Assembly (NCBI GenBank): GCA_964016885.1 | Contig: OZ024741.1 | Location: forward strand, 378,200,001-378,264,000 | DNA: 64,000 nt | DNA from: Eledone cirrhosa | Lineage: Eukaryota | Direction of reading: 5' to 3' | Shown: positions 27,586 to 29,200 of the stretch, in pieces | How the letters are laid out: every line of letters begins with the position of its first letter | Position numbering within the stretch: position 1 is the stretch's first letter | Notes under the pieces: model-generated | The model's database searches: none | Told to the model about the DNA's origin: nothing | Seen by the model: only the letters and a program-made list of their open reading frames with translations | Made by a program: the position numbers and the translations under genes

Positions 27586-28180
27586 AGAATTAATATATCT
27601 ACCGACATATGTATACAGATGCATACCTACGCTAGCAGATATATATGTTTTGTCTTAGTAACTTTGTAGTTCTATGCAGGGGAATGCAGAACAATTATAT
27701 GAAAGACGTAAATAAGAAAGTTATGAAAATTGACATACTTACTAAAATTTCACTCCAAATAATTAGTTTCTGTAAGGGGATAAATACAGTTATGTAATAC
27801 CTGTAGAGAAGCCTTACGTCATCAGTAGTGGCTAGTCTCTGTCTTAATAGCACCCCTACTCAAAGCTGGTTTACCTCAGTGTCACGTGATTAATTCTTTT
27901 GAATTTGCCACTTGACCAAGGAGGCAGCGAATTTTTCAGGGCTTAGAATCTAGCCCCGCTCGATTTTTTCGCTTTTTTCCATCCACTGAATTATTGTTAT
28001 AAAAGCTTCCAGTGTCCCCGCATTGCCTGGTGGCTTAGCTGAGAATAGACTCCCAGATGACGTAAGGCTTCTCTACAGGTATTACATAACTGTATTTATC
28101 CCCTTACAGAAACTAATTAGTTGGAGTGAAATTTTAGTAAGTAAGTCAATTTTCATAACTTTCTTATTTATGTCTTTCAT
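27586..28180. mobile_element. retrozyme-like element, family B, with inverted arm
   Basis: About 27698-27829 is the reverse complement of about 28050-28180. Homologous to 28546-29200 and 56580-56930. Confidence 0.8.
28049..28127 (+). ncRNA. hammerhead, family B (mirror copy with CTGATGA on minus strand 27752-27829)
   Basis: actcc-CAGATGA-c gtaagg...ccttac a-GAAAC taatta GTT-ggagt. Confidence 0.8.
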
Positions 28181-28434
28181 ATATATATATATTTATATAT
28201 ATATATATATATATATATATATATATATATATATATATATATATAAAGGAACCAAATAAATATATATAAAAAAAAGACTCCAGTTGTATTTTCGAATTCA
28301 TTTTACACGCACACATATATATATATATATGTATATACATATTATATATATATATATATATATATATATATATATATATATATATATATATATATATATA
28401 TATATATATATATATATATATATATATATATATA

Positions 28435-29200
28435 TGAAAGACGTAAAATAAGAAAATTATAAAAATTAACTTACTTACTAAAATTTCACTCCAACTAATT
28501 AGTTTCTGAATGGGAATAGACATGATTTATAAGACATATAATATCCTTATTTTATGTCTTTCATATAATTGTTCTGCATCCCCTTGCATTGAACCACAAA
28601 GTGACTAAGACAAAACCTATATATTTGCTAGCATAGGTATGCATCTGTATATATATGTTGGTAGATATACTAATTCTTTATAATTATCTCCAAATTATTT
28701 TGTTGAGCAAAAATGTGCCAAAACTACTACTATAGTTTATAGTAATAGTCCGGCTACTGTCTTATTACATCCCACTCCTCACTGAATAACCTCGATGTCA
28801 CGTGATTGATTCTTTTGAATTTGCCACCGACCAAGTAGGCAGTGATTTTTTCAATGTCCTGGAATTTAGTCCTCGCTTGCTTTTTTCCATACACTGAATT
28901 ATTTTTGTATAAGTTCCCTGTGTCCACGCATCGCCTGGGAACTTAGCTGAGAATTGACTTCCTGATGACGAAAGGTATTCTCCATGTTCCACTCGAAAAC
29001 CATGTTTATTCCCTTTCAGAAACTAATTAGTTGGAGTGAAATTTTAGTAAGTTATTTTTAAAATTTTCTTATTTTACGTCTTTCATATAATTGTTCTGCA
29101 TCCCCTTGCATTGAACCACAAAATTACTAAGACAGCACCTATATATTTGCTAGCATAGGTATGCATCTGTATATATATGTTTGTAGATATACTAATTCTT
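28435..29200 (+). mobile_element. retrozyme-like element, family B: about 522 nt monomer with about 135 bp terminal direct repeats and an inverted 5' fragment
   Basis: 28546-28680 repeats at 29068-29200. Inverted fragment 28435-28524. (TA)n on both sides. Confidence 0.85.
28957..29037 (+). ncRNA. hammerhead, family B
   Basis: acttc-CTGATGA-c gaaagg...cctttc a-GAAAC taatta GTT-ggagt. Confidence 0.85.

Follow-up and report, generated by a model that had tools for sequence, protein, structure and literature searches.

The window, i.e. the whole stretch of 64,000 nucleotides of Eledone cirrhosa DNA that was analysed, harbours between positions 27586 and 29200 two separate insertions of two subfamilies of a hammerhead ribozyme (HHR)-containing repeat, termed family B, within one TA-rich tract. 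A third subfamily is inserted further downstream. The arms of these insertions terminate at two sites behind the predicted HHR cut, named E1 and E2, and coding PLEs are found on both sides:

19694–24500, +, PLE that we take to be Neptune-like, C-terminal EN with CX4CxxC
27586–27825, −, inverted arm of insertion 1 (B1), 3′ end at E2 against (TA)n 27555–27584
27826–28179, +, forward arm of insertion 1 (B1), 5′-truncated, ends at E1 against (TA)n
28048–28127, +, type I HHR copy c1, core mutated to CAGAUGA, predicted cut after 28122
28431–28528, −, short inverted arm of insertion 2, HHR 3′ half plus tail, ends at E1 (partial fifth HHR)
28537–29200, +, insertion 2 (B2), forward arm made up of a 522-nt period and a partial unit of 142 nt, ends at E2 against (TA)n
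28564–28594, +, E1 signal, first copy in the tandem, TA plus bulged hairpin
28679–28707, +, E2 signal, TA plus CTC-stem-TT-GAG bulged hairpin
28794–28814, +, conserved TGTCACGTGATT block, presumably E-box-like, possible internal promoter
28956–29037, +, HHR copy c2 (type I), core intact, stem II base C.A, triplet GUU, cut predicted after 29032
29086–29116, +, E1 signal, TA plus bulged hairpin, z −3.27
30078–32540, −, 5′-truncated Hydra-clade PLE W1, U3-A8 HHR, family unit 3,631 nt
39575–41066, +, 5′-truncated Hydra-clade PLE W2, C-terminal GIY-YIG with CxCx5C
56553–56929, +, insertion 3 (B3, young), 5′-truncated, ends at E1, 99–100% identical to other loci
56775–56857, +, HHR copy c3, predicted cut after 56852

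The inverted arm 27586–27825 begins inside the HHR core and the fourth HHR at 27825(−), whose stem III is mismatched, therefore lacks the 5′ strand of stem I. Copy c1 (28054) carries CAGAUGA in place of CUGAUGA, a mutation absent from the preliminary description of this DNA. The forward arm 28537–29200 comprises about 1.27 units with one HHR, so that this copy alone cannot release a monomer; its HHR c2 combines an extended stem II containing an internal loop with a palindromic stem III. The sequence TCACGTGA, which we take to be E-box-like as the block around it, is located at window positions 27882, 28798 and 56615, does not vary among the 11 B sublineages and might be a promoter element; it is repeated in the 3′ region of the Neptune-like PLE at 18631, 18984, 23667 and 24024. 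The window also contains two perfect inverted repeats (37550–37956 with 203-nt arms and 48698–49215 with 174-nt arms) in which hammerhead motifs belonging to two more families are located (37821/37685 and 49064/48849), another repeat, at 29535(−) and 11072(−), whose short hammerhead is U.U-based and whose stem III is palindromic, and two broken non-LTR retrotransposon RT frames in tandem at 2067–7836(+).

An exact HHR 21-mer detected at least 9,320 HHR motifs of family B in the 3.0-Gb assembly (control, 0). The window copies represent three subfamilies, B1, B2 and B3, whose best genomic matches reach 95–97%, 92–95% and 99–100% identity, respectively, and whose monomers are 74–82% identical to each other. 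From cut to cut the monomers measure 529–532 nt (B1, n = 11), 526–535 nt (B2, n = 16) and 549–585 nt (B3, n = 39), i.e. about 525–585 nt for the family overall; the length of about 522 nt originally given for the monomer holds only as the period of the B2 copy in the window. The same description had called the unit non-coding, in agreement with longest ATG frames of 53–79 aa and none above 79 aa in B monomers. Clustering of 90 distinct monomers at 93% resulted in 11 clusters, and at least 11 B sublineages spread independently. The copies sit in (TA)n as 5′-truncated tandems with inverted arms. Constant attachment of the monomer to a coding PLE, named beforehand as evidence against a non-coding replicon, was seen at none of 70 B loci, which comprise 94 of the first 100 motif sites listed out of 9,320, taken in position order: a coding frame precedes the monomer in 0/70, every HHR lies inside monomer sequence, and the PLE protein matches found in 11 of these loci never enter the monomer on the same strand. 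No published description of family B was found in the accessible literature, Repbase and Dfam lying outside the comparison.

The HHRs of family B consist of the CUGANGA..GAAA..UH core and stems I, II and III in type I order. Stem II has the three forms given in the preliminary description, GTAAGG/CCTTAC (28062), GAAAGG/CCTTTC (28970) and GCAATG/CATTGC (56789). Each forms six of six pairs flanked by C and A and is followed by GAAAC-TAATTA-GTT-GGAGT with the GUU triplet, and the inner helices vary as stated there (tacag/ctgta, catg/catg and gacag/ctgtc). Stem II is fully paired (6/6) in 135 of 142 extracted HHRs, whose extraction demanded a near-match to the core. Selection on the ribozyme fold, as deduced earlier from the three variants, is corroborated by covariation in both the sublineage HHRs and the full monomers and by double changes in other helices. 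For 21 sublineage HHRs the covariation score amounts to 0.205 compared to 0.086 after shuffling, with 0 of 500 shuffles as high, and more cells with double changes were obtained than in all 500 shuffles; two other measures are weaker (pairs changed on both sides, 48/500; further pair types, 337/500). In this set pair 2 of stem II is UA in 12, AU in 6 and CG in 3 cases without any mismatch, pair 5 is GC in 12, UA in 7, GU in 1 and other in 1, and five inner-helix pairs are also changed on both sides. As a control for relatedness the scan was extended to 11 full monomers, whose variable columns form 25,651 pairs; 77 of them covary perfectly and stem II pair 2 is the sole perfect three-state Watson-Crick covarying pair. 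The covariation of stem II thus holds against relatedness. Across the B monomer double changes are found in 17 of 123 predicted pairs, and the fold of the B3 monomer has a z of −3.80.

Hardly any variation is seen in stems I and III and in the E1 hairpin, which therefore provide no covariation support. Stem III is a 10-nt palindrome, a property linked to dimeric cleavage in PMC4209133. In the minimum-energy folds of c2 and c3 the core is paired with stem III and the active fold is not formed; according to these models, pairing of the core with the stem III strand might correspond to an off state. The stem II loop can be matched as UUCUC/GAGAA with the strand that lies upstream of stem I; this match is 95% paired and shows no double change, and a pseudoknot between the stem II internal loop and this strand is for that reason only a guess. 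The segments GAGAAU/AUUCUC (window positions 28950–28955 with 28977–28982) are conserved and do not covary. An Rfam scan of the window returned no hammerhead family at E ≤ 1 and only microsatellite-driven miRNA matches, and a search for B-like HHRs with a different stem III gave 0 matches.

The 3′ ends of the arms are confined to narrow positions. E1 and E2 account for 123 of 130 B arm 3′ ends, 119 of these 123 being followed by a TA run, in a mapping which left out ends with <600 nt downstream and which is biased towards those sites as the end queries stopped at E2, E1 and E1. Agreement is provided by the position-ordered set, in which 95 of 101 arms end 45–210 nt after the cut (duplicates and arms within 30 nt of a locus edge left out). 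E1 is situated at +57–62 from the cut (+79 in B3) and E2 at +172–177 (+201 in B3). Each end site is composed of TA and, 7–10 nt on, a hairpin with a YTC/GAR lower stem and a 2-nt 3′ bulge. The hairpin is present in 10 of 11 monomers at E1 and likewise in 10 of 11 at E2, one E2 copy having a mutated lower stem, and within B monomers the motif occurs only at E1/E2 (chance, 0.07–0.11 per monomer). Because the ends of PLEs mark internal RT starts, as shown in PMC11167929, we infer that the hairpin positions the Hydra RT, and this bulged hairpin of about 30 nt is likely the start signal for the Hydra reverse transcriptase. A description of a Hydra hairpin was not found in the accessible literature, outside of which most subscription papers lay; the word "hairpin" is absent from the main text of PMC8557442.

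The coding PLEs were assigned to clades by motifs due to the weak outcome with Pfam, which recognized RVT_1 in 2 of 9 frames and GIY-YIG in none. H160, a young coding Hydra family, has a 3,724-nt unit with an open frame of about 740 codons, frames in the family reaching up to about 750 codons, and 27 of its 31 ends lie at two sites; since its endonuclease protein is 100% identical in 34 places and its frames are open, it is as young as B3. The hairpin is found at both mapped ends of H160 and of W1 and nowhere else in their units (4/4 sites). W2 does not match the motif, so that the end signal is common to B and two of the three Hydra families examined in this genome. Inspection by eye revealed the hairpin in 3 of 6 published Hydra consensi, namely Hydra-2_Amil, Hydra-1_Ajap (twice) and Hydra-2_Ajap; it is altered in Hydra-1_Crog and was not seen in Hydra-1_Amil and Hydra-1_Obim. 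DNA homology between B and H160, W1, W2 or the Neptune-like element was not detected (blastn, best E 0.027); accordingly, among these four coding PLEs neither a parent element of B nor a pLTR homologous to it was found. H160 was read at L194:2900–6623 and has a truncated relative at window positions 10100–10600. Its endonuclease as query gave 60,834 first-look candidates, far above what the single octopus Hydra family listed in PMC8557442 would lead one to expect. Hammerheads with a U3-A8 core lie at window positions 30160–30262(−), 13570–13670(+), 32823(+) and 38899(−), the first one, with a long stem II, being that of W1. The repeat end downstream of the Neptune-like PLE combines a U3-A8-like core with two TA ends, and its hairpin is of another kind.

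On this basis we consider it rather probable that B is a non-LTR retrozyme with a conserved type I HHR fold which is copied by the reverse transcriptase-endonuclease of a Hydra-clade PLE. Its cycle might start with transcription of a B tandem copy, whose hammerheads would pair via the palindromic stem III and cut after GUU, the freed monomers then being circularised. The Hydra protein would bind one of the two hairpins and nick (TA)n, and cDNA synthesis would begin at the UA 7–10 nt upstream of the hairpin. The RT might subsequently read round the monomer up to about 4.6 times, and a second event from the other strand would generate the inverted arm. Against this scenario stand the lack of homology between B and the PLEs compared, the lack of the hairpin in W2, the TA ends with another hairpin in the Neptune-like element and the missing 5′ pile-up at the cut. 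HHR cleavage is, moreover, not needed for Poseidon transposition in vitro according to PMC11167929, and 8 of 9 tested retrozyme dimers failed to cleave according to 10.64898/2026.07.22.740005, both of which count against the model.

The form of the template is reflected in the arrays. B arms extend up to 4.58 units. The B3 arrays (27 loci) were compared after removal of the 147 of 562 columns that are AT-only or homopolymeric. A variant present at more than one locus is fixed throughout the array in 21 cases and unfixed in 4; another 8 variants are fixed but private to one array, and singletons make up 31 of the 33 that are unfixed; the divergence is 0.21% within and 0.79% between arrays. B2 points in the same direction (2.6% within and 4.1% between arrays) and B1 weakly so (2.1% versus 2.6%). 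Young arrays are hence copies of one monomer haplotype, as fits a circular template, and the fixed variants imply that the monomer is, at least at times, multiplied again. A circle explains this re-multiplication simply, and template jumping or young homogeneous source arrays can do so as well; judged from the genomic copies, a circular RNA template for B is plausible. The arms begin at scattered positions: of 95, one starts exactly at the cut and 12 start within −3 to +30, in a set of loci picked for an intact HHR and thus biased against ends at the cut site. No pile-up at the predicted cut site was observed among these 95 arms, and in vivo cleavage is therefore not supported by the copy ends.

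The absent pile-up, together with the read-through of the cut site by most B arms, would also suit the same element with the same Hydra helper but a different template, either a linear multimer left uncut or a monomer copied repeatedly through template jumping; the hammerhead would then act in RNA end processing or stability instead of circle formation. Poseidon insertion is likewise unaffected by HHR mutants, with no reads ending at its cut site (PMC11167929), and coding Hydra elements make the same HHR-to-HHR tandems at 3.6–3.7 kb. However, combined with 5′ truncation purely linear copying can only shorten arrays, and private variants fixed in all units (4/4 in L157 and 3/3 in L155) and the 4.58-unit arms need a monomer that is multiplied again. 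We regard such a template, linear or re-used by jumping, as unlikely, though as a serious competitor of the circular one.

A connection to Naiads was previously hinted at by way of the base of stem II. In hammerhead numbering the pair 10.1–11.1 closes stem II of type I HHRs; in B position 10.1 is C in 138 of 142 and position 11.1 is A in 141 of 142 HHRs. The C.A apposition is thus real, but not as exceptional as had been stated, as a mismatch at this position is common in published Hydra HHRs. A U.U mismatch at 10.1–11.1 is known from PMC3088659, and in File S2 of PMC8557442 U.U is found there in most Hydra HHRs, GUU is a common triplet and C..A appears in PLE-X1_cBra, a Chara element. Another Hydra family of this genome has A.A at the same position. 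A C10.1.A11.1 hammerhead was not found described in the accessible literature, with subscription papers mostly outside. As the mismatch is a known trait of Hydra HHRs, any hint it gives is towards Hydra. Besides those of B, a single C.A hammerhead was found in the window (40875–41011, with a stem II of about 110 nt); it follows the frame 39575–40138 of W2, which is probably the element previously called "Naiad-2". Examined as a candidate Naiad, this type of element (L141, L148) was rejected: in place of an N-terminal GIY-YIG and DKA it has the RT followed by a C-terminal EN, DKT and CxCx5C, and we assign it to the Hydra clade following the definition in section 11 of PMC8557442. A crude scan of the loci for the DKA motif revealed no Naiad.

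A Naiad or a Neptune-type element as the helper of B is very unlikely. Both target (TA)n (PMC8557442) and make tandems with inverted arms, but the C.A element of the window belongs to the Hydra clade by DKT, CxCx5C and the C-terminal EN, in the published end of Naiad_Ovul GAAAC precedes CTGATGA and the approximately 500 nt shown contain no such hairpin, and the Neptune-like ends carry a different hairpin. Least credible of all is that B is just a terminal repeat (pLTR) that came loose from a coding Hydra family not yet sampled, or a satellite that spread as DNA: pLTR homology is given for 24 of 57 Xenopus retrozyme families in 10.64898/2026.07.22.740005 and the position-ordered reading covered 94 of 9,320 motif sites, yet a PLE frame enters the monomer on the same strand in 0 of 70 loci, successive monomers are linked head-to-tail with one another, the spread of at least 11 sublineages was independent, and precise E1/E2 ends with inverted arms are not produced by unequal crossing-over.

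Family B has properties in common with several known systems. B shares with metazoan non-LTR retrozymes (PMC7229834; 10.64898/2026.07.22.740005) the tandem monomers that are non-coding and contain a single type I HHR, the lack of LTRs, the lack of attachment to a coding element (0/70 loci) and the dispersal as monomers, dimers and up to short multimers coexisting with PLEs; axolotl HHR_Amex2 has U.U at the stem II base, and thus a mismatch as in B. The B monomer exceeds the 170–400 nt RNAs of PMC7229834 and falls inside the 51–972 bp range of 10.64898/2026.07.22.740005. In contrast to these retrozymes, stem II of B is elongated (about 50 nt) and contains an internal loop and C.A, and it is possible to propose a particular helper clade and a start signal; whereas cleavage and circles were shown for them, B is known from genomic sequence. 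With Hydra PLEs (PMC8557442) B has in common the PLE-type insertions, i.e. (TA)n targeting, partial tandems, 5′ truncation, inverted truncated arms and an optional tail, as well as an HHR whose stem III is palindromic and whose stem II base is mismatched, and bulged hairpins at the ends, but it lacks an ORF, and its DNA shows no detectable homology to the three Hydra families compared. Internal RT initiation at two sites downstream of the HHR with a tail between them is also described for Poseidon of Anolis (PMC11167929), where, however, the start resides in an AC-rich stem-loop without target homology and the tail spans 30–40 bp, while the two putative starts of B are 80–125 nt apart, each with its own hairpin and a UA matching the (TA)n target. 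Finally, B resembles the non-autonomous Chlamys elements such as MRC1 (PMC8557442) as a protein-free PLE-type element with head-to-tail insertions; those are similar to their autonomous partners at the 3′ end, whereas B shares only structural signals with Hydra.

Family B is accordingly described as a new, large non-LTR retrozyme family that is likely mobilised by Hydra elements rather than by Naiads. The element class is already known, and the part worth testing is the shared start hairpin. Which enzyme copies animal retrozymes, and whether via a circle, is still a matter of hypothesis in print; as the young B3 and the equally young coding H160 share a defined RNA signal at mapped ends, a concrete enzyme, template and mutation can be put to the test. 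A more far-reaching scenario, to which we give somewhat less than an even chance, is that the UA-preceded bulged hairpin of about 30 nt, present twice per unit, constitutes a clade-wide binding and start signal of the Hydra RT from corals and sea cucumbers to this genome. B would then be a viroid-sized circular RNA that keeps only the hairpin, a dimer-acting hammerhead and structural helices, and that is rolled into (TA)n by the Hydra enzyme. If this is true, the hairpin alone could make any RNA a template for TA-targeted insertion.
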